DNA of 34,110 nt from a virus: IMG/VR virus record IMGVR_UViG_3300032117_000096, one strand, 5' to 3'. Positions 8,051-28,796 of this stretch are shown here, piece by piece (position 1 is the first letter of the stretch; every line of letters begins with the position of its first letter). The notes below the pieces were generated by a model that did no database searches, was not told the origin of the DNA, and worked only from the letters and a program-made list of their open reading frames with translations. Made by a program: the position numbers and the translations under genes.

Positions 8051-8425
8051 ATGACACAGACAAAACTTTACACTATACAGGATTCAGAAGAATATCCTGT
8101 ACCAACTCCAGAAGGGGATGAGTTGGTAGAAAAGCTAAATGGTCTTGACTTTAATGATTTTTTTGCGGGCAACGTTAAGCGTGAAAACGGGAAAATCATG
8201 TTTGACGGCATGCCTTTTGATTCCGTGAAGCAACTGCTTCAGTTTTGCAAAGAAAAAGGAGCTGTAATAAAAACTGTCGAGCGCGATAATCCTAAAGATT
8301 GGAGCGATGAGTTGAATATGCTTGAATATCAGGTGCGCGTAGGGGCTTCTAATTTGCCTTGGGTAGCAAAAAAACTCACAGAACAACGTGAAGAATTCTG
8401 GAAAGACCCTTCTGCACATAAATGA
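8051..8425 (+). CDS. Hypothetical protein, first gene of the IbrA/IbrB-like cassette
   Basis: 124-aa ORF with an SD (GGAG, 8 nt upstream) and an ATGA overlap with the next ORF. No family recognised. Confidence 0.6.
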   Translation: MTQTKLYTIQDSEEYPVPTPEGDELVEKLNGLDFNDFFAGNVKRENGKIMFDGMPFDSVKQLLQFCKEKGAVIKTVERDNPKDWSDELNMLEYQVRVGASNLPWVAKKLTEQREEFWKDPSAHK

Positions 8426-8799
8426 AAGCCTGCATTAAAATAGAGGCTATCGGAGAAAACATATTCCAAAGCATCGATAGGTATCGTTGCTTTGGAACAA
8501 TGGCAGATATTTTTTCAGTACCGAAATCATACTGGGTAGCAAAGATCACGGGATACTGTTCTGAGTTTGACGGATTTAAACGTGAGTTTGTTCATGGGAA
8601 TCGGGATTACGCAAAAGCTAACGGCAACGGAAGCCGCGGAATTTATGTCACTTACTTTCTTAATCCAGGACTCTATGAGGTAAAGCAAAAAACGTCATGG
8701 AAAAATACTGAAAGATACTTCTGTATGGTCACAGAAGAAGGAGAAATCATAAAGATGGACAAACCGGACATTGAGAAATGCCTACTAAAAAAGTGTTAG
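8422..8799 (+). CDS. Hypothetical protein, second gene of the cassette
   Basis: 125-aa ORF coupled on both sides. No family recognised. Confidence 0.6.
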   Translation: MKACIKIEAIGENIFQSIDRYRCFGTMADIFSVPKSYWVAKITGYCSEFDGFKREFVHGNRDYAKANGNGSRGIYVTYFLNPGLYEVKQKTSWKNTERYFCMVTEEGEIIKMDKPDIEKCLLKKC

Positions 8800-9977
8800 G
8801 GAAGAATGTTTTTGTTGCCGCAATAGACAGGGTAAATTACATCTTCGACAACTTCCCAAAGATTTATGTGAGCTTTTCTGGCGGTAAGGACAGCTCAGTA
8901 ATGACGCATATTGTTGCAAGTGAGGCGCGTAGGCGTGGGGTTAAAATCGGGCTATTATGCGTAGACCTTGAGGCGCAATACAGACTTACGATGGATCATG
9001 TAGCGGAGATGTACGAAATGTATGCGGATGTCATTGAGCCTTACTGGGTTGCATTGCCGTTAAATCTCCGCAATGCTGTATCTCAGTATATGCCGCAATG
9101 GAAGTGTTGGGATGTCGAAAAGGCAGATTCATGGGTACGGAATCCGCCAAAAATAGCAATTACTGAAACACACAAATTCCCGTTTTTCCATGACGGGATG
9201 GAGTTTGAGGAGTTCGTTCCAGCTTTTGGAAAATGGTACTCCGAAGGGAAGCCATGCGCCTGCTTTGTCGGTATACGGTCAGATGAAAGTCTTAATAGGT
9301 GGCGCACAATATCGGGCGGAAGAAAGCAGATGTCTGATGGTCATAAATGGACGACGTGGATCGGCGACAGCGTATTCAATGCTTACCCGATTTATGACTG
9401 GAAAACTGAGGATTTGTGGACGTTCTCAGGTAAAACGGGATTGCCATACAATAAACTTTACGACCGCATGTATCAAGCAGGGCTAACCCTACACCAGATG
9501 AGAATCTGCCAGCCCTACGGAGACGACCAAAGGAAAGGGCTATGGCTGTTTCATATCATCGAGCCAGAGACATGGGGTAAGGTTATTGCAAGGGTAAATG
9601 GGGCAAATCAGGGGGCTTTGTATGCCCAAGAGAGCGGAAATGTCCTTGGTAATCGGATTATCAATAAGCCCGACAATCACACGTGGAAAAGCTTTGCATT
9701 CATGCTTCTGGACTCTATGCCAGACAAGACAGGAGACCATTATAAAGACAAGATAGCTGTGTTCCTGAAATGGTATTCAGATCGTGGATATGAAAGGGGT
9801 ATCCCAGATGACGGCCCCATGGATAAATCAGCTCCATGCTGGAAAAGGGTATGCAAGGCTTTATTGCGGAATGATTATTGGTGCAAAGGATTAAGTTTTG
9901 GGCAGCACAAAAGCGAAGCTTACGAGAAGTATAAAAAGTTAATGAGAAAAAGGAGGTCGGAATGGGGGATAATATAG
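8778..9977 (+). CDS. ibrA: PP-loop ATP pyrophosphatase of the PAPS-reductase family with a long C-terminal extension (IbrA-like)
   Basis: PP-loop SFSGGKDSS (nt 8871-8897) and FVGIRSDESLNRW, with about 200 aa of extra C-terminal domain. Immediately followed by a ParB-domain gene, which is the IbrA/IbrB architecture. Confidence 0.8.
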   Translation: MPTKKVLGKNVFVAAIDRVNYIFDNFPKIYVSFSGGKDSSVMTHIVASEARRRGVKIGLLCVDLEAQYRLTMDHVAEMYEMYADVIEPYWVALPLNLRNAVSQYMPQWKCWDVEKADSWVRNPPKIAITETHKFPFFHDGMEFEEFVPAFGKWYSEGKPCACFVGIRSDESLNRWRTISGGRKQMSDGHKWTTWIGDSVFNAYPIYDWKTEDLWTFSGKTGLPYNKLYDRMYQAGLTLHQMRICQPYGDDQRKGLWLFHIIEPETWGKVIARVNGANQGALYAQESGNVLGNRIINKPDNHTWKSFAFMLLDSMPDKTGDHYKDKIAVFLKWYSDRGYERGIPDDGPMDKSAPCWKRVCKALLRNDYWCKGLSFGQHKSEAYEKYKKLMRKRRSEWGII

Positions 9978-10507
9978 CCTTAGATTTCGGTGAAGTTCCT
10001 GATTGGGTGAAAGGTCATCCTGTATCAAAGGTGCAATGGGTGCCGATTGACAAGGTGCACGCGAACGATTACAACCCTAACAGCGTCGCGCCGCCAGAAA
10101 TGAAGCTTTTGAAGCTGAGCATTGAGAATGATGGATATACTCAGCCCATTGTAGCATGGGAGACTGAAGAGGGCTTATATGAGGTTATAGACGGGTTTCA
10201 CCGGCACAAGGTCGGGCGTGATTTGGGGCTATCTCACTTGCCCGTTGTTGTGGTAAATGCCGACAGACAAGAGCGCGGTGATAGAATAGCCTCAACGATA
10301 CGACACAATAGAGCAAGAGGAAAGCACCAAGTGGGAGCAATGAGCGATATAGTACAAGAGCTATCCCGTAGGAATTGGAGCGACGCAAAGGTTGCAAAAG
10401 AGTTGGGAATGGAGCCGGATGAAGTGTTAAGATTGAAACAAGTATCTGGACTTGCTGAACTCTTTGCTGATAAAGATTTTTCCGAGGCATGGGAGGTTGA
10501 ACGATGA
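9962..10507 (+). CDS. ibrB: ParB/sulfiredoxin-like nuclease-domain protein (IbrB-like)
   Basis: VPIDKVHANDYNPNSV...YEVIDGFHRHKV...ASTIRHNRARGKH are ParB N-terminal-domain motifs. It overlaps the PAPS-reductase gene by 16 nt. Confidence 0.8.
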   Translation: MGDNIALDFGEVPDWVKGHPVSKVQWVPIDKVHANDYNPNSVAPPEMKLLKLSIENDGYTQPIVAWETEEGLYEVIDGFHRHKVGRDLGLSHLPVVVVNADRQERGDRIASTIRHNRARGKHQVGAMSDIVQELSRRNWSDAKVAKELGMEPDEVLRLKQVSGLAELFADKDFSEAWEVER

Positions 10508-16661: not shown

Positions 16662-17276
16662 TCATGGCTTTTCCTCATCGCCTACATCTCCGATATTGAG
16701 GCATCCAAGCGTTTTAACCTGCAATCCAAGCTGAGACTGTAGTCTCTGCTCATTTGCCTTTTTAAGGTTCTCAGCATTCCATTTGCGTTGATACTCTCTT
16801 ACCTTTTCAGGGTTCTCAGCCCTCCATTTGCGTTGATTCTCTCTTGCCTTTTCAGGGTTCTCAGCATTCCATTTGCGTTGATTCTCTCTTGCCTTTTCAG
16901 GGTTCTCAGCATTCCATTTGCGTTGATACTCTCTTACCTTTTCAGGGTTCTCAGCCCTCCATTTGCGTTGATACTCTCTTACCTTTTCAGGGTTCTCAGC
17001 CCACCATTTGCGTTGCTTCTCTCTTGCCTTTTCAGGGTTCTCAGCCCTCCATTTGCGTTGATACTCTCTTGCCTTTTCAGGGTTCTCAGCCCTCTGTTTG
17101 CGTTGCTGCTCATTTACCTTTTCAAGGTTCTCAGCCATCCATTTGCGTTGATACTCTCTTACCTTTTCAGGGTTCTCAGCCCTCCATTTGCGTTCCTTCT
17201 CATTTACCTTTTCAAGGTTCGCAGCTCTCCACTTACGTTGATACTCCCGCTTTCGCTCCCGTTGCTCTTCAGTCAT
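16662..17276 (-). CDS. Tandem-repeat protein: eleven 15-aa repeats, consensus ENPEKVREYQRKWRA
   Basis: 204-aa ORF. Almost the whole protein is periodic, with Pro, Trp and Tyr at fixed positions and K/R/E rich. A short non-repeat C-terminal tail follows. Confidence 0.7.
   Translation of the reverse strand: MTEEQRERKREYQRKWRAANLEKVNEKERKWRAENPEKVREYQRKWMAENLEKVNEQQRKQRAENPEKAREYQRKWRAENPEKAREKQRKWWAENPEKVREYQRKWRAENPEKVREYQRKWNAENPEKARENQRKWNAENPEKARENQRKWRAENPEKVREYQRKWNAENLKKANEQRLQSQLGLQVKTLGCLNIGDVGDEEKP
16745..17270. repeat. 45-bp tandem repeat array, about 11.5 copies
   Basis: The anchor ccatttgcgttg recurs at 16779, 16824, 16869, 16914, 16959, 17004, 17049, (17094 variant), 17139, 17184 and (17229 variant), an exact 45-bp period. 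Confidence 0.95.
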
Positions 17277-17973: not shown

Positions 17974-18116
17974 CCTTCCTCCTCTATCGGTATCTGATAG
18001 CTGTCTTCAGCCATCAAAATGCCGGCCTCGGTAAACTTTACGATCTCATAAAACTTGGTCTCTCGTGTGATCGAGTACCTGATCACGCGCCCGATCTCCG
18101 CCAAAAGCTTTTTCAT
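17970..18116 (-). CDS. Small protein (48 aa)
   Basis: Found by hand: MKKLLAEIGRVIRYSITRETKFYEIVKFTEAGILMAEDSYQIPIEEEG. Strong SD AAAGGAGGAAGAatg. ATGA overlap with the next gene. Confidence 0.55.
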   Translation of the reverse strand: MKKLLAEIGRVIRYSITRETKFYEIVKFTEAGILMAEDSYQIPIEEEG

Positions 18117-18132
18117 TCTTCCTCCTTTTTAA

Positions 18133-18390
18133 TTATACATCGCCAGAGCCAGACCCATTGCCATCGCCATAGCCTTTGCCATCGCCAGAGCCATTGCCAT
18201 TGCCTTCGCCATCGCCAGAGCCTTCGCCATAGCCTTCGCCATAGCCTTCGCCAGAGCCAGACCCATTGCCATCGCCATAGCCTTTGCCATCGCCAGAGCC
18301 ATAGCCAGAGCCATCGCCATCGCCAGAGCCATAGCCAGAGCCATCGCCAGAGCCATCGCCATCGCCATAGCCATAGTTTATACCGTCCAT
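18133..18390 (-). CDS. Acidic (Gly-X)n low-complexity protein, 85 aa
   Basis: The sequence MDGINYGYGDGDGSGDGSGYGSGDG...GSGSGDV has Gly at every second position, with X = D/S/Y/E/N/K. This frame has a good SD (GAGGtggcggaATG) and overlaps the end of the upstream gene by 13 nt. Confidence 0.5.
   Translation of the reverse strand: MDGINYGYGDGDGSGDGSGYGSGDGDGSGYGSGDGKGYGDGNGSGSGEGYGEGYGEGSGDGEGNGNGSGDGKGYGDGNGSGSGDV
18136..18375. repeat. Hexanucleotide-periodic tract (gccatN/gccagN units) containing a longer internal duplication
   Basis: The tract consists of gccagagcc / gccatcgcc / gccatagcc units. The segment gccagagccagacccattgccatcgccatagcctttgccatcgccagagcc occurs twice (about 18141 and about 18249, 108 bp apart). 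Confidence 0.9.
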
Positions 18391-18722
18391 TCCGCCACCT
18401 CATTTAATGATTTCAAAGCGATATGAGATAGTGGTATAATCTCTATCGCTTGGGTTAGGATTATTGACTTTACCGTCAAAGATATCCGGCTTTCTTTGAC
18501 GTTTTTCAGCCCTTTTTCAGCTATGTCGGACAGTGTATTTGCCCCGTTCCACGACCATATTCGGCGAGCGTTATTTAACTCCACTTCCATCCCGTCATGC
18601 CTGACTAGTTCGCCAAAATGCACGCCAGCCGAATAAGTGCGTATCAATACGTGCTTAGCCGATTCCGTCGGTGGAATCTTTTTTGTGTAAATTTCCCCAT
18701 TAATCGTGATTTCATTTGACAT
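18378..18722 (-). CDS. Conserved phage protein of unknown function
   Basis: 114 aa. The motif VLIRTYSAGVHFGEL...LNNARRIWSWNGANTLSDIA recalls a widespread phage family that I cannot name with certainty. Confidence 0.55.
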   Translation of the reverse strand: MSNEITINGEIYTKKIPPTESAKHVLIRTYSAGVHFGELVRHDGMEVELNNARRIWSWNGANTLSDIAEKGLKNVKESRISLTVKSIILTQAIEIIPLSHIALKSLNEVAEWTV

Positions 18723-19603: not shown

Positions 19604-19634
19604 GTCGCTTATGTGTATCTTTACTGTCTCTTAG

Positions 19635-19663
19635 TTGTCACAAAAGAATTATAACCAAATAAT
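19635..19663 (+). promoter_or_regulatory. Candidate rightward promoter overlapping the leftward one
   Basis: TTGTCA (19635-19640), 17-nt spacer, AATAAT (19658-19663). Its -10 box abuts the -10 of the opposite promoter. Confidence 0.3.
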
Positions 19664-19676
19664 TGGAAAACATCAA
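19648..19676 (-). promoter_or_regulatory. Candidate early leftward promoter
   Basis: On the minus strand: TTGATG (19676-19671), 17-nt spacer, TATAAT (19653-19648). It lies about 45 nt upstream of the ATG at 19603. Confidence 0.45.
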
Positions 19677-19704
19677 AAAAAAAGATAAAATAATTGGAGG
19701 TAAC

Positions 19705-19860
19705 ATGAAGAATAATGATCAAGAAGAGTACCGTGAAGATGAAATTGGCCGTAGTCTTGGTGAACTTAATGGGCATTGCCCCGGGGATTGCGCTAAGCCA
19801 GTAATCCGGAACCTCTCAGAAATGGGAGGTTTTTTTTTGTTGCCAACCCCCCTAAGTTAA
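19705..19860 (+). other. Short plus-strand unit: SD+ATG ORF of 51 codons that runs through an intrinsic terminator. Protein or sRNA is unresolved.
   Basis: GGAGGtaacATG at 19693-19707. The reading frame MKNNDQEEYREDEIGRSLGELNGHCPGDCAKPVIRNLSEMGGFFLLPTPLS has its stop at 19858-19860, about 20 nt beyond the terminator T-tract. Confidence 0.35.
19811..19839 (+). terminator. Rho-independent terminator (plus strand)
   Basis: The stem ACCTCTC (19811-19817) pairs with GGGAGGT (19824-19830), one G-U pair included. The loop is agaaat and a T8 run follows. Confidence 0.75.
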
Positions 19861-19863
19861 ACT

Positions 19864-19912
19864 TATGCGCCTATCCTTAACGTACCCGATAAACAAGTTA
19901 AGGCAGCGCATA
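19864..19912. other. Long imperfect hairpin in a non-coding region
   Basis: TATGCGC pairs with GCGCATA (19864-19870 with 19906-19912) and CCTTAAC pairs with GTTAAGG (19875-19881 with 19897-19903). That gives 14 bp in two helices with a 15-nt apical loop. Confidence 0.4.
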
Positions 19913-20178
19913 TATAACCGGCTTCTTGAGCTTGTCCAGATAATCAGACCATTCCTGCATCATCCTTTCAGCGCGGGTAACGGTTTGCCATCGGCAGTAT
20001 ATTTTTGTGGAGCGATCAAGAGGAAAAGACCGCCACCATCAAAAAGCGATTGCGCTTTATCGGTTGGCCTGGTTGTCTTTTGTCGGGGTTGCGGGAACCT
20101 ATGAATTAATACTGAAGGAACCTTGCGGAGCATGTCAATAAAAGTATACCTAAAGCTATACTTAATAATGTTATCATC

Positions 20179-21960: not shown

Positions 21961-23706
21961 TTATTGCGTCGAAACGCTTTGGTTTATCAACTCTATTTCT
22001 GACATGCTTGCGCCAATATATTCACCACTCATTCCAGTTATGCTCATTTCATCGAGATCACTTGGCATAAATCCAATGAGATCACTGAGTGTGCGATTTT
22101 GAGCCATTATAAGCTCTCCTGATGCAGTTACAAACGAACAATGCTCTACTGCATGAAGGGCGTAGATTCCAATGTCCACGGTAATCCAGACTCCTGAAGC
22201 TACGTCCGTTATGTGTAGTGTTTCAGATGCAAGAAACGCTGTGCCGAATGTAGTATTATCGAAAAGTAAGGACGTTTCAGTTGGGGATATTGCTGAAATC
22301 GTATAGACTTTCTCGCTTATCGCAGAACTTTCTGATATGGAAGTTGAAACCGATATTCCTGCAAGGTCGTTGCTGTTTAATGTTTCGGTGGACTGTATTA
22401 TCACTTGACCAAACGACGCATCTGTTTGAGCTGACGTGTCATTGGTCGATATCGAGACAACAGCTCCAAATAAATCAAAAGACCCAGAGGAATCTGTCGT
22501 TTTGATTACGGATAAGACGTTTGTTAACGTATCATTTGATGAACTGGAATCGGTAACTGTTGACAGAACTACGATTCCTGTTGACTCTGATGTTGCTGAC
22601 GAATCAAGAGCCGACACAGAGATTATAACAGACTTTGTGTCTGTTGATGTAGACATCTCTGAAGGGTATGATGATATCACACATGAAATTGCATCTGCAG
22701 CTGATCCTGAGTCGGCTGCGTTCAGGGCAGATGTGAACGTAGCAACATCAGTCGATGAAGACGAATCAAATCTTGCTGTCGTTATTGATATTGATGAGCC
22801 TTCTGAACCAGAAACCCTCTCTGAAGGCGAATAGGTTGCAAAGTTTCCCTGGATAACGGAATCTGTCGCTACTGAAGAATCAATAGCTATCAGCGAAACA
22901 CCGATTACGTAAATATCAGTCGATGATGACGAATCAGTGGATGTTATGGCGGATACCAACCCTACCACATCCGATGAGCTTGACGAGTCAACAGAAACCG
23001 GAGTTACGTTAATGCCTGGTTTGTCGGATGATGATGACGAGTCAACAGAAACCGGAGTTACGTTAATGCCTGGTTTGTCGGATGATGATGACGAATCAGA
23101 AGGAGATGCGCTTGCAACAATTGCTGAAGCATCTGTTGCTGTCGATGAGTCGGCAGGGCTCTCCGTATCGCTTCCTGCACCCGTCGCGGTTATCTGGATT
23201 GTGAACGAATTGTCATTTGATGCCATGCTCCCGAAACTACCCGGTGTTTCGGAAGATGACGGTGACGATTTGTAGAATATTCCTGAAGATCTACTCGGAT
23301 TGTTCGTCGTGTTTCCTGTGGTATACCCCGTCGGATTTGACGGTGATGTTGATGTGGTGTTCGCTATAGCTGCAAGGCAGTAATCAGAGCTACTAAGCCC
23401 TGTTAATGTCGGGCCGTTCTGCCCATCAACAGTATAATTCCCTATTGCAGCGCCACTGAAAGTCGCCATAGATGCGGTAGCGTATCCGCTTATGGTGATA
23501 TTGAACGACGATGTTGAAGACACAGTCCTATAATAGATCGCTCCATTTGCCGCGCTGTCCAATAGTGTCCAACCTGATGGTGTCGTTATACTATTGTTTG
23601 ACACCACCATCACGGCAAGGTGGCCTGATGCCGTTCCAGCAGGATACGACATTGATATTGAAGCACTCGCGTATCCTCCAGAACCGCCAATGAACGCGAT
23701 GCTCAT
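21961..23706 (-). CDS. Ser/Thr/Asp-rich repeat protein, probable tail-associated/surface protein
   Basis: 581 aa. About 175 aa form an N-terminal globular part (…PSGWTLLDSAANGAIYY…). About 300 aa then consist of degenerate ~18-aa units built on hydrophobic strand + DSSxxxD. A non-repeat C-terminal domain completes the protein. Confidence 0.5.
   Translation of the reverse strand: MSIAFIGGSGGYASASISMSYPAGTASGHLAVMVVSNNSITTPSGWTLLDSAANGAIYYRTVSSTSSFNITISGYATASMATFSGAAIGNYTVDGQNGPTLTGLSSSDYCLAAIANTTSTSPSNPTGYTTGNTTNNPSRSSGIFYKSSPSSSETPGSFGSMASNDNSFTIQITATGAGSDTESPADSSTATDASAIVASASPSDSSSSSDKPGINVTPVSVDSSSSSDKPGINVTPVSVDSSSSSDVVGLVSAITSTDSSSSTDIYVIGVSLIAIDSSVATDSVIQGNFATYSPSERVSGSEGSSISITTARFDSSSSTDVATFTSALNAADSGSAADAISCVISSYPSEMSTSTDTKSVIISVSALDSSATSESTGIVVLSTVTDSSSSNDTLTNVLSVIKTTDSSGSFDLFGAVVSISTNDTSAQTDASFGQVIIQSTETLNSNDLAGISVSTSISESSAISEKVYTISAISPTETSLLFDNTTFGTAFLASETLHITDVASGVWITVDIGIYALHAVEHCSFVTASGELIMAQNRTLSDLIGFMPSDLDEMSITGMSGEYIGASMSEIELINQSVSTQ
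22982..23089. repeat. Perfect 54-bp tandem duplication inside the S/T/D-rich gene
   Basis: The unit gacgagtcaacagaaaccggagttacgttaatgcctggtttgtcggatgatgat occurs at 22982-23035 and again at 23036-23089. It encodes VSVDSSSSSDKPGINVTP twice. Confidence 0.95.
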
Positions 23707-27324: not shown

Positions 27325-28796
27325 TACTGGTTCTGAAATATTGGGTTTTTCTGAGTCCATATATTCATGTAATCCTGAAACCCTTTTCCTGAGCTGTCAG
27401 GAGTATCTATTCTTCCAAACCTTTGCTGCCACTGTCGAGCCATATTTGCAGTTTGTATTTGCCTGTTAAGAAGAGCTATGGCGTTTTGTGCTATAAGATT
27501 TCTTCCGCCAGGCGTGTTGGCTAATGACGGAGTTACCTGATTAAATAATGAGACTTCATTGTCCGTCATCCTGGTGATTCCGGCATTTTTTATCAAATCC
27601 GGCACCATGCTTGTTGCCAGCGCTTTTGCTGCGTCTTTATTTGCAATATTCCCAGGGCCTATATTGAATCCAAGCGATTTTGCTGCACTTTGAATATCAT
27701 ATTGGTCTGGAGCAAGCTTTCCTCCGTTTTGATCTGCGAGAAGCTGCTGGATCTGCTGGTATTTAGCAATATTTGTTCTAGCAGAAATGGCATTATCCTG
27801 TATAGCGTTATACTCATTTGACGCTGATTTCGCGGTATTTGTTTGGTATTCGGTATTTCCAGCGACAGATGAGGGATTGAGCCCTACAATTGCTCCATTT
27901 CCTGAGTAGCTTCCTGTATCAGATGGTGAATAGTAACCTGTTCCGGTATAACTGCCAGTTTGTGGAGAATATGCTTGCCCGTTATTATCGGTCGGAACAT
28001 TTCTGACGACCATTCCCGTTTTTGGATCCACTGAATTGAAAGCTTCAAGGTTTTTCCCAAGAGCAGCCGTTGCTGCTTTTCCTGTGTTATACCCTGGTAT
28101 CCATGAATATGACCTCGTTGCTGGATCGTATTGCATTCCCTCAGGAACTTTTGGGGTTGCTGATATGGATCCATCTGCATTCTGAATCATGCTTCCCTCT
28201 CTTACAGCATTCCCAAAATTAGCCACCTTCCATGCGTCCAATGCGTCTTTAGGCAAAAAACCATATGATATTGCTCCCACGAGCTTGTCGAGAGGCATAC
28301 TTGCTAATCCTCCTGAATTGCCCTGCGATGACGGTTGATCTGGTTGCGCTTGTTGAGGCTGTATTTTTTGTAATAGCTGCATTCCATAATCAGGATTTAT
28401 GGACATAGGATTTAGGGCGGAAGACTGAAAGGGTGCAGGTTCTTGTGAATTCTCTTCATTATTCGCAGAATATCCTGTCGGTTGCTGCGCGCTTGACTGT
28501 TGACCGTAATTCATTAAATCATATCCTGTCGGTTGCTGCGCGCTTGACTGTTGGCCGCTATTCATTAAATCATTAAGGAACGCCATTTTTTGGCGCGCCA
28601 TATTCATCTGTATGGCTTGCTGCTGATTCTGAATACCCTGCTGATACCCCTGCTGACCTCCTGCCAAACCTTGTGCAATCACTTGCCCTATTCCTACAGG
28701 CATGCGGGATGGCGCGGATGCAGCAAGGAGACCTTGAGCTATTCCGAGTAAGCCTTGCGTCTGAGGATCAGCATAATTTATGTCAAGTAGTCCCAT
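27324..28796 (-). CDS. Q/N/G-rich internal virion (ejection) protein
   Basis: 490 aa of low complexity, positioned between two other ejection-type proteins in T7 gp14-16-like order. Confidence 0.55.
   Translation of the reverse strand: MGLLDINYADPQTQGLLGIAQGLLAASAPSRMPVGIGQVIAQGLAGGQQGYQQGIQNQQQAIQMNMARQKMAFLNDLMNSGQQSSAQQPTGYDLMNYGQQSSAQQPTGYSANNEENSQEPAPFQSSALNPMSINPDYGMQLLQKIQPQQAQPDQPSSQGNSGGLASMPLDKLVGAISYGFLPKDALDAWKVANFGNAVREGSMIQNADGSISATPKVPEGMQYDPATRSYSWIPGYNTGKAATAALGKNLEAFNSVDPKTGMVVRNVPTDNNGQAYSPQTGSYTGTGYYSPSDTGSYSGNGAIVGLNPSSVAGNTEYQTNTAKSASNEYNAIQDNAISARTNIAKYQQIQQLLADQNGGKLAPDQYDIQSAAKSLGFNIGPGNIANKDAAKALATSMVPDLIKNAGITRMTDNEVSLFNQVTPSLANTPGGRNLIAQNAIALLNRQIQTANMARQWQQRFGRIDTPDSSGKGFQDYMNIWTQKNPIFQNQ
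28472..28573. repeat. 51-bp tandem duplication (2 copies) inside the 490-aa gene
   Basis: atcctgtcggttgctgcgcgcttgactgttg[a/g]ccg... starts at 28472 and again at 28523. It encodes ...GQQSSAQQPTGY... twice. Confidence 0.9.

Follow-up and report, generated by a model that had tools for sequence, protein, structure and literature searches.

In the stretch of viral DNA held in IMG/VR as record IMGVR_UViG_3300032117_000096 (34,110 nucleotides, referred to throughout and at its full length as the window), a hexanucleotide-periodic tract lies within a small minus-strand gene whose product, here called the Gly-X protein, carries glycine at every second position. We consider it very likely that this is a real coding gene and the obligate partner of the gene directly upstream, which encodes a conserved protein of the family DUF6948. 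The DUF6948 protein is predicted to be a Sm-like small beta-barrel, the Gly-X protein is probably intrinsically disordered, and the two products may act together as a barrel and a tail encoded by separate, overlapping genes. The features of the window on which the analysis is centred are the following:

18378..18722, minus strand: partner gene, encoding the conserved 114-amino-acid DUF6948 protein (Pfam PF22253, E 3e-31)
18133..18390, minus strand: gene for the (Gly-X)n protein, an open reading frame (ORF) of 85 amino acids with the translation MDGINYGYGDGDGSGDGSGYGSGDGDGSGYGSGDGKGYGDGNGSGSGEGYGEGYGEGSGDGEGNGNGSGDGKGYGDGNGSGSGDV, which starts MDGINYGYGDG and ends GSGSGDV
18138..18376, no strand assigned: hexanucleotide-periodic tract, defined by Tandem Repeats Finder, a repeat search and a census of units
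18378..18401, minus strand: translation-coupling junction, read from the sequence, in which the Gly-X gene occupies frame -1 with respect to DUF6948

Conservation of the DUF6948 and Gly-X gene pair

The pairing was approached from both of its members. The forward sample consisted of 80 IMG/VR loci with DUF6948 homologs (38-96% identity), which were translated and scanned by regular expression, and a same-strand (G-X)n tract was found directly downstream of DUF6948 in 77 of them, two of the three exceptions being loci that end at a contig end. A first-pass annotation of the window, made from the sequence alone, had proposed checking if, as a rule, a Gly-rich ORF comes after genes of the upstream family, to which these loci give a strongly positive answer; it had treated the product as a stand-alone micro-protein, and the near-obligate coupling to a partner of predicted Sm-like fold was missed. 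The reverse sample consisted of 120 viral loci retrieved solely by a degenerate DNA pattern for GSGDGSGYG. Enough upstream sequence was available in 100 of these, 93 of which have DUF6948 at a distance of up to 1200 nucleotides upstream and on the same strand, and five of the remaining seven carry a divergent DUF6948 relative, detected by the Pfam model in three cases. This divergent branch, which precedes the Gly-X ORFs in loci L124, L138, L155, L159 and L168 and in some of them reaches the Pfam threshold, has the layout RGW..VG...IR.WGTT.GLG, or, in a fuller pattern, ...LQRGWV.VG...NA.VIR.WGTT.GLGELA..GP. The pairing extends to contigs of GTDB genomes, where 51 of 61 loci pass a strict pairing rule and another four to five show looser Gly-X ORFs when inspected by eye, and a further locus that was retrieved with the Gly-X protein as the query (P0125) likewise has its Gly-X gene directly after a DUF6948 gene.

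When the ORFs of 83 loci were clustered, no neighbour beyond the pair itself was conserved in more than 12 of them, the next family looking like a recombinase, and the module therefore consists of two genes. A library of 1.84 billion proteins contains 2673 representatives of DUF6948 at the 50% identity level. Thousands of tailed phages and prophages have the pair, in most cases close to recombination functions and surrounded by early or accessory genes, and the phage lineages that carry it span from 32 to 70% guanine plus cytosine (GC). Some loci hold additional proteins beside the pair. In L036 (4263-5066) the Gly-X tract is fused to a C-terminal domain of 130 amino acids with a weak DUF6745 match (E 1.3e-4), and a protein of about 240 amino acids lies just after DUF6948 in L054 (4357-5082) and in L074 (4599-5315), the two copies being 40% identical to each other and L074 lacking a Gly-X ORF. 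A third component of the module was considered on these grounds and rejected, the two domains being not detectably related and not general.

The organization of the junction suggests how the two genes are expressed. In the window, a 7-nucleotide spacer separates a GAGG motif (18401-18398) from the start codon of the Gly-X gene (ATG, 18390-18388), and the stop codon of DUF6948 (TAA, 18380-18378) comes after that start, giving an overlap of 13 nucleotides, exactly as the first-pass annotation had described it. The same start/stop overlap is kept in 71 of the 139 distinct pairs on which all the composition statistics given below are based (39 of 63 in the smaller set of loci used for the codon comparison), and a core GGAG, GAGG or AGGA motif is located 5' of the Gly-X start in 28 of those 63 loci. 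Because the 13-nucleotide overlap is the usual arrangement, translation of the two genes appears to be coupled.

Among cultured phages, the pair is carried by Ralstonia phage NK-7, by Pectobacterium phages Ymer and Sabo, and by Iodobacter phage PhiPLPE. DUF6948 matches, this gene alone having been examined there, are also found in the phages Amona, Koroua, Pappous, Taid and Abuela. In the Pectobacterium phages the pair stands as an isolated cassette between opposite-strand genes. The Gly-X gene of NK-7 appears in GenBank under the name 'fibroin heavy chain-like protein'. In PhiPLPE, an (G-X)n ORF of 81 amino acids located directly after the DUF6948 gene phiPLPE_84 (L083 1164-1409, corresponding to about 46045-46290 of NC_011142.1, minus strand) is unannotated in RefSeq, and it exemplifies how gene callers, low-complexity filters and annotators routinely drop dipeptide-repeat genes of this kind. 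What had the appearance of a junk repeat becomes a defined two-gene module, for which Ymer, NK-7 and PhiPLPE make experimental tests feasible.

The repeat tract and its product in the window

Tandem Repeats Finder resolves the region 18138-18376 into 39.8 copies of a 6-nucleotide unit, with arrays of period 12, 30 and 42 nested in it. The units read (GGC NNN)n on the coding strand and GCCATN or GCCAGN on the plus strand, where GCCAGA (11), GCCATC (10) and GCCATA (8) are the most frequent, so that the period and the gccatN/gccagN units noticed at first are borne out. There is an internal duplication of 108 nucleotides (18140-18247 against 18248-18355, 91% identical) with an exact core of 55 nucleotides, the longest exact direct repeat in the tract (at 18140, offset 108); the first-pass annotation had the offset right, and its figure of 52 bp for the repeated segment has to be corrected to the 55 measured. 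Its reading of all three minus-strand frames and two plus-strand frames as open agrees with a scan for stops, which counts 8 of them in the remaining plus-strand frame. Five open frames were reached in none of 2000 mononucleotide shuffles of the tract. The tract is not an assembly artefact, since gene finders have predicted the identical 85-amino-acid protein on 24 or more public contigs (40 index blocks).

The Gly-X protein of the window is composed of a leader of six residues (MDGINY), 39 unbroken G-X dipeptides and a terminal valine, followed by a TAA stop at 18135-18133. The residues at X are Asp and Ser (11 each), Tyr (7), Asn and Glu (4 each) and Lys (2), and the whole protein contains 40 Gly, 12 Asp, 4 Glu, 2 Lys, no Arg, 8 Tyr, 11 Ser and 5 Asn, with 8 GYG motifs. 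The earlier count made by hand, 16 acidic against 2 basic residues in 85, was therefore exact, and the strongly acidic character deduced from it is matched by a computed isoelectric point of 4.05 and a net charge of -14.5. As mRNA, the tract (18125-18410, minus strand) folds with -114 kcal/mol as compared with -94 kcal/mol in shuffles (z = -4.4), a difference that probably just follows from the internal repeats; such a fold might influence translation of the downstream gene, encoding 48 amino acids.

Protein-level selection on the Gly-X frame

Evidence on which of the open frames is used comes from codon comparison of the 63 related loci. Glycine is encoded by GGC 1779 times, by GGT 245 times, by GGA 228 times and by GGG 129 times, and the choice is near-uniform inside each locus and different among loci. 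GGC is nearly the sole Gly codon in most loci, and it is used exclusively even in L026, L035 and L069, which have 35% GC, while there are loci with only GGA (L012, L036, L050, L067 and L078), only GGT (L013, L062 and L064) or only GGG (L031 and L053). Serine is encoded by TCN in most loci and exclusively by AGY in L007-L011 and L014. Because the Gly and Ser codons differ in this way among loci, the other frames encode differing residues while G-[S/Y/D] stays constant, and there is no nucleotide motif that is conserved under the constant amino-acid pattern. In the strict repeat runs of the 139 proteins, Ser (38%), Tyr (28%) and Asp (25%) together make up 91% of the X positions; Ala accounts for 0.6%, and aliphatic residues, Pro and Thr for at most 0.3% each, even though they are one substitution away. 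These comparisons indicate that the tract is a protein-coding gene whose Gly-X frame is under protein-level selection, and they back the frame favoured in the first-pass annotation.

The uniformity of codons within a locus, together with the comparison of near-identical relatives, suggests that the repeat has been expanding, contracting and becoming homogenised. Between the window and its near-identical relative L001, the flanks are almost invariant and the tract is rearranged, the protein having 85 amino acids in the former and 97 in the latter, and the insertions and deletions read in the alignment of the tract with near-identical relatives are multiples of 6 nucleotides. Taken at the level of sequence comparison, this pattern points to selection on composition, periodicity and length instead of on exact sequence, which would account for the rapid turnover of the repeat.

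Variation within the Gly-X family

Members of the family range from 23 to 262 amino acids, with a median of 85, and are always acidic or neutral (median net charge -9, never positive). Every one of the 139 contains at least one G[YFW]G motif, with a median of 9 per member, and aromatic residues make up a median of 13%. The leader has a median length of 9 amino acids, with Glu as the most frequent residue at position 2 and Ile, Val or Leu at position 4 in 86 of the 139 (62%). Being located downstream of DUF6948 on the same strand, with strict G-X alternation, the 13-nucleotide overlap and an aliphatic residue at position 4, the gene of the window is an ordinary member of this DUF6948-linked family; its product has more Glu, Asn and Lys at X than is typical. 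At the other extreme there are homologs with few acidic residues, such as those of L044 (3 Asp plus Glu in 85 amino acids) and L031 (3 in 62), and Cys occurs in some cores, for instance those of L006-L009.

Copy number is also variable, two large viral contigs having arrays of paralogs. Six tandem Gly-X genes are found around a single DUF6948 gene in L024 (4119-5778), and about a dozen small Gly-X ORFs are clustered round a single DUF6948 gene in L054 (3106-8202). These paralogs mostly retain a leader of the form ME-[I/V/R]-x (MEIIISDF in L024, MEIKSYG in L054), even where there is no overlap with DUF6948. The L054 copies also admit Lys, Arg, Trp and Asn at X positions, and at least two of the L024 copies end in S-W-K(-E), resembling the C-terminus of DUF6948.

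Predicted structures of the two proteins

The AlphaFold model of DUF6948 is a confident one, with a mean predicted local distance difference test score (pLDDT) of 91.1, and agrees with the Sm fold, which is defined by a helix at the N-terminus and, after it, a sheet of five strands that is strongly bent. The best 50 Foldseek matches in the Protein Data Bank (PDB) are all Sm or LSm proteins, including archaeal SmAP heptamers, spliceosomal Sm proteins and the Lsm1-7 and Lsm2-8 complexes, with template-modelling (TM) scores by target of up to 0.71 and root-mean-square deviations of 2.5-3 Å over about 80 columns. Structure matches in BFVD consist of DUF6948 proteins and of phage proteins labelled Sm-like or RNA-binding. 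On this modelling evidence DUF6948 is predicted to be a Sm-like small beta-barrel. Some DUF6948 members gave weak YmiC-like Pfam matches, which were discarded as spurious, YmiC being a small membrane protein of E. coli. Two proteins of 216 amino acids (P0127 and P0190) contain two DUF6948 domains in tandem, which may hint at self-association of the domain.

The model of the Gly-X protein, on the other hand, has a mean pLDDT of 38.6 and no secondary structure. Although a single-sequence prediction such as this one is weak evidence, the protein is probably intrinsically disordered, as the first-pass annotation had already supposed.

A possible tail supplied in trans

A joint action of the two products is favoured by coupled translation, by near-obligate co-occurrence and by in-frame fusions, which are rare. 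The clearest fusion is P0212, an ORF of 173 amino acids in which DUF6948 is followed by a leader-like KEIIYDV and by a Gly-, Ser- and Tyr-rich tail that is looser than strict alternation, and P0251 is a DUF6948 protein with a fused acidic tail. It is possible that the Gly-X polypeptide is a disordered low-complexity tail given in trans to the Sm-like DUF6948 protein. The leader would dock on the barrel and anchor the polypeptide to it, and the acidic, Tyr-studded repeat would gate the ligand surface of the core by charge mimicry. Alternatively, many weak Tyr-mediated contacts would serve to recruit or sequester basic partners, or to drive higher-order assembly. We hold this specific mechanism tentatively, as clearly less probable than not; for the account as a whole, comprising a real gene, a near-obligate module and a tail in trans, the chances appear to us evenly balanced.

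Several observations weigh against this account. The assignment of DUF6948 rests on fold similarity, for which the Foldseek E of about 2.5e-3 is modest; no match to the LSM or Hfq families of Pfam was obtained for 62 DUF6948 members even at E <= 10, and the alignment of DUF6948 with SmD1 and with Hfq by hhalign gave probabilities of 0.1-0.2%. A sequence search of the PDB with DUF6948 rendered no match either. Since no link to LSM or Hfq is seen in the sequences, DUF6948 is better described as Sm-like in fold than as a member of that family. The domain is moreover about neutral (median net charge +1, and -0.1 for the protein of the window), which is atypical of a nucleic-acid binder, and its charge does not covary with either the charge or the length of the Gly-X partner. 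As for a physical contact between the two proteins, what suggests it is the coupling of the genes and the P0212 fusion, which occurs on one contig of 1.5 kb and might be due to a sequencing error. The conservation of the leader is not clean evidence of docking, because the leader is also constrained by the DUF6948 C-terminus that overlaps it, and a minority class of the family has a basic leader (MKRWHKP...) and no overlap.

A bolder version of the tail-in-trans account can be formulated, which we consider unlikely. The pair would be a two-component system in which a Sm-like ring and a fast-evolving (Gly-Ser/Tyr/Asp)n polypeptide build a multivalent ribonucleoprotein or protein assembly, or else a polyanionic trap for a basic host or defence factor, with repeat length and copy number tuning the dose. 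The assembly, formed in the infected cell, would be a phage counterpart of the eukaryotic Sm/LSm cores with granule-nucleating low-complexity tails.

Alternative explanations

The alternative that survives best is that of a stand-alone polyanionic decoy, a protein that imitates nucleic acid or titrates out some basic protein of the host or of its defences (a restriction enzyme, RecBCD or a nucleoid protein), in line with the suggestion of the first-pass annotation, with DUF6948 as a mere neighbour or chaperone. The acidity of the window protein, and a net charge that is never positive among its 139 homologs, are what would be expected of such a decoy, and so is the proximity of the gene to genes for Gam-like/Sipho_Gp157, Erf, RecT and exonuclease proteins, which are frequent sites of anti-RecBCD and anti-restriction genes. 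The isolated cassette of the Pectobacterium phages could be read in the same way, and the 6-12 copies present in some genomes could reflect a dosage effect. The known mimics Ocr and ArdA, however, are rigid and folded, whereas the Gly-X protein has no predicted structure. Neither an anti-restriction family nor any other was matched in Pfam, PHROGs or NCBIfam. Many homologs, among them the two poorly acidic ones mentioned above (L044 and L031), are mostly Gly, Ser and Tyr, and a decoy acting alone leaves the near-obligate, translationally coupled pairing with DUF6948 unexplained. We regard it as a rather improbable explanation. Should the module nevertheless turn out to serve in anti-defence or host takeover, it would represent a new class built on disorder and not on a folded mimic.

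The strict alternation over 39 dipeptides has the same periodicity as the crystalline regions of silk fibroin, and a homolog is annotated in GenBank as fibroin heavy chain-like, so that an ordered polymer may be thought of: silk-like beta-sheets, an amyloid or an assembly bridged by Ca2+ or Mg2+, in which Gly would line one face and Ser, Tyr and Asp the opposite one, and which would have a structural or adhesive function. The evenly spaced Asp carboxylates could bind divalent cations. A charge of -14.5 in 85 amino acids would nonetheless oppose the stacking of sheets unless counter-ions were present, members of down to 23 amino acids would make poor polymer units, and AlphaFold gives no strands (a single-sequence prediction, hence weak evidence). 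Ala-rich GAGAGS blocks are missing, Pfam detects none of the terminal domains of fibroin, and the GG.G.D motif of the RTX nonapeptide GGxGxDxUx occurs neither in the window protein nor in any of the 139 homologs. An ordered polymer is thus quite improbable in our opinion.

A short, conserved leader placed ahead of a core that is hypervariable is also the layout of the precursors of ribosomally synthesised and post-translationally modified peptides, in particular those of the microcin B17 type, in which the core is rich in Gly, Ser and Cys. DUF6948 would then be the protein that recognises the leader, and both the arrays of paralogs beside one DUF6948 gene and the Cys residues of the L006-L009 cores would fit. 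Among the neighbours in the 83 loci, nevertheless, no gene for modification, processing by a protease or export is conserved, DUF6948 being the sole conserved neighbour. The leader is neither a signal nor a double-glycine leader, cores reach 262 amino acids, and no Pfam or NCBIfam family is matched, all of which makes a precursor of this type very unlikely.

The unusual properties of the tract as nucleic acid might suggest that the ORF is incidental and that the selected element is an mRNA stretch that is structured or rich in G, a hotspot of recombination or an array of DNA sites bound by a protein. Five of the six frames are open, Gly codons are uniform within each locus (GGC even at 35% GC), and the mRNA folds better than its shuffles do. 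Codon uniformity is, however, what repeat expansion and homogenisation are expected to produce, and RNA pairing is expected of any internal repeat. The start codon, the overlap and the Shine-Dalgarno-like motif are conserved, and aliphatic residues, Pro and Thr are nearly absent at X in spite of lying one mutation away. Above all, the switches among GGA, GGT and GGG and between TCN and AGY with the amino-acid pattern kept, that is, the diversity of codons among loci, largely refute a role at the nucleic-acid level, to which we give hardly any credence.

A fusion of DUF6948 to (Gly-X)n by -1 ribosomal frameshifting at the DUF6948 end, instead of a separate protein, would agree with the -1 frame of Gly-X relative to DUF6948 in most loci (offset 2) and with the true in-frame fusion P0212, a rare case, but can practically be dismissed, given that a conserved ATG starts the ORF, often with a Shine-Dalgarno-like motif, that other loci have an offset of +1 or 0, gaps of 1-6 nucleotides or no overlap, that a slippery heptamer is not found in ...GCGGAATGGACGGTATAA, and that the paralogs of L024 and L054 start independently of DUF6948.

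Genomic setting of the pair

The window represents most of a phage genome of about 34 kb with a P22-like portal protein, whose closest cultured relatives are just 35-39% identical. On the minus strand, genes for virion, tail and ejection proteins are followed by an endolysin, a holin-like and a spanin-like gene (21370-20179), a gap of about 575 nucleotides and an operon of small genes. The latter encodes, in this order, proteins of 86, 139 and 69 amino acids, DUF6948, the Gly-X protein, a protein of 48 amino acids, two small membrane proteins, a protein of 57 amino acids and a repeat protein of 204 amino acids, and downstream of these small genes there are a Gam-like/Sipho_Gp157 protein, an Erf-like recombinase and replication genes. 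From this order, after the lysis cassette and before the Gam-like/Sipho_Gp157 and Erf-like genes, the pair looks like part of an early or accessory operon, which fits the early protein envisaged in the first-pass annotation.

The gap itself (19604-20178) contains no ORF longer than about 80 amino acids, a terminator-like hairpin on the plus strand (19808-19833) and promoter-like sites on both strands, and may correspond to a late/early boundary or to a regulatory region. One of the sites is the following:

19648..19676, minus strand: sigma-70-like promoter match, TTGATG-17-TATAAT, from a consensus scan only (weak evidence)

This match may mark the start of an operon with the pair as its fourth and fifth genes; the region holds no more promoter-like sites than are expected from shuffled sequences.

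Other repeats and gene blocks were noticed in the window. The 204-amino-acid ORF (16662-17276, minus strand) is built of about 11 tandem units of 15 amino acids, ENPEKVREYQRKWRA (Tandem Repeats Finder period of 45 nucleotides, 10.9 copies, 88% matches). Apart from a weak match to an HNH-associated family, the only families that it resembles are PHROGs with no assigned function, and the opposite strand is also open across its repeat. Two tandem duplications, at 22981-23098 (54 nucleotides x 2.2, 98%) and at 28470-28573 (51 nucleotides x 2.0, 94%), sit among the tail and ejection genes, one in an ORF of 581 amino acids and one in an ORF of 490 amino acids, neither of which matches a PHROG. A block of plus-strand ORFs (8051-10507) lies between the minus-strand replication and packaging genes, and its last two genes (8778-10507) match PAPS-reductase-like (399 amino acids) and ParB-like (181 amino acids) proteins, a combination that we presume may relate to DNA modification or counter-defence.

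Standing in databases and the literature

A comparison of the 2-kb region with 50,697 phage records rendered no DNA match, and the Gly-X protein has no match in PHROGs or NCBIfam. Its Pfam match to TrAA12 was rejected as compositional, being sub-threshold and placed on a low-complexity stretch of the profile. PADLOC-DB gave no defence-model match for either protein of the window or for the homologs of NK-7 and Ymer, and Rfam and tRNA scans of the window found nothing. Composition-filtered homology searches with the Gly-X protein returned 5 matches with HMMER and 3 loci with BLAST, and regular-expression and DNA pattern scans were substituted for them. In the literature searched there is no description of the Gly-X family, of DUF6948 or of their pairing, and both the family and its coupling to a Sm-like protein appear to be uncharacterised. 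The earlier statement that no phage family of this composition has been described holds for that literature; what it had not recognised is that the tract belongs to a large conserved family and is not a one-off. To our knowledge, perfect dipeptide-repeat proteins are rare.

Comparison with known systems

A collagen-like protein, with Gly at every third residue, is excluded by the 6-nucleotide period, which places Gly at every second one. The Gly-X protein resembles Ocr and ArdA in being small, very acidic and encoded among early or accessory genes. Those proteins are rigid, folded mimics of B-DNA, in contrast with the Gly-X protein, for which no fold is predicted (a weak, single-sequence result) and no homology to them is found.

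With the heavy chain of silk fibroin the family shares a Gly that alternates strictly with a small or aromatic residue (Ser, Tyr). Unlike fibroin, it is almost devoid of Ala, has about 25% Asp at X and is strongly negative, its members have 23-262 amino acids as compared with thousands, and they are cytoplasmic phage proteins that lack the fibroin terminal domains in Pfam, so that the resemblance is compositional and not homologous. The EBNA1 protein of Epstein-Barr virus contains a virus-encoded Gly-Ala repeat of variable length, with a purine-rich periodic mRNA. Both are viral low-complexity repeats of Gly plus one other residue that vary in length, but that of EBNA1 is a domain located inside a large DNA-binding protein, uncharged and irregular (GGA/GA), and in eukaryotic cells it affects both translation and proteasomal processing in cis. 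Prion-like low-complexity domains of the FUS type, whose multivalent [G/S]Y[G/S] motifs drive phase separation, are similar in having Gly/Ser spacers and regularly placed Tyr residues, with a composition that is conserved (8 GYG motifs here, a median of 9 in the family), and differ in that the Gly-X protein is strongly acidic, which is atypical of such domains, not rich in Gln or Asn, and perfectly periodic.

The closest parallels are found among proteins that join a barrel to a disordered tail. SmD1 has a (GR)n tail, SmD3 and LSm4 have RG tails, Hfq of E. coli has an acidic C-terminal domain, and SSB has a Gly-rich linker with an acidic tip. In Acinetobacter, Hfq bears a Gly-rich repetitive C-terminal domain (PMC5663733). 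The phage module is like the Sm, LSm and Hfq proteins in combining a Sm-type barrel, predicted here, with a Gly-containing low-complexity segment that is probably disordered; the Gly-X dipeptide repeat is shared with SmD1 and the acidic character with the tip of the Hfq tail, and the P0212 fusion, as a rare event, puts the tail on the barrel itself. It is unlike them in that the tail is normally the product of a separate, coupled gene located in a phage accessory region, that X is Ser, Tyr or Asp instead of Arg, and that DUF6948 has no detectable sequence relationship to them. If the tail does act in trans, the pair would be a natural split form of the barrel-plus-disordered-tail design of Hfq, Sm proteins and SSB, and a simple system in which to study how sequences defined by composition alone work. 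With its barrel and tail encoded apart and its acidic Gly-Ser/Tyr/Asp dipeptide code, it would constitute a variant of a known architecture.

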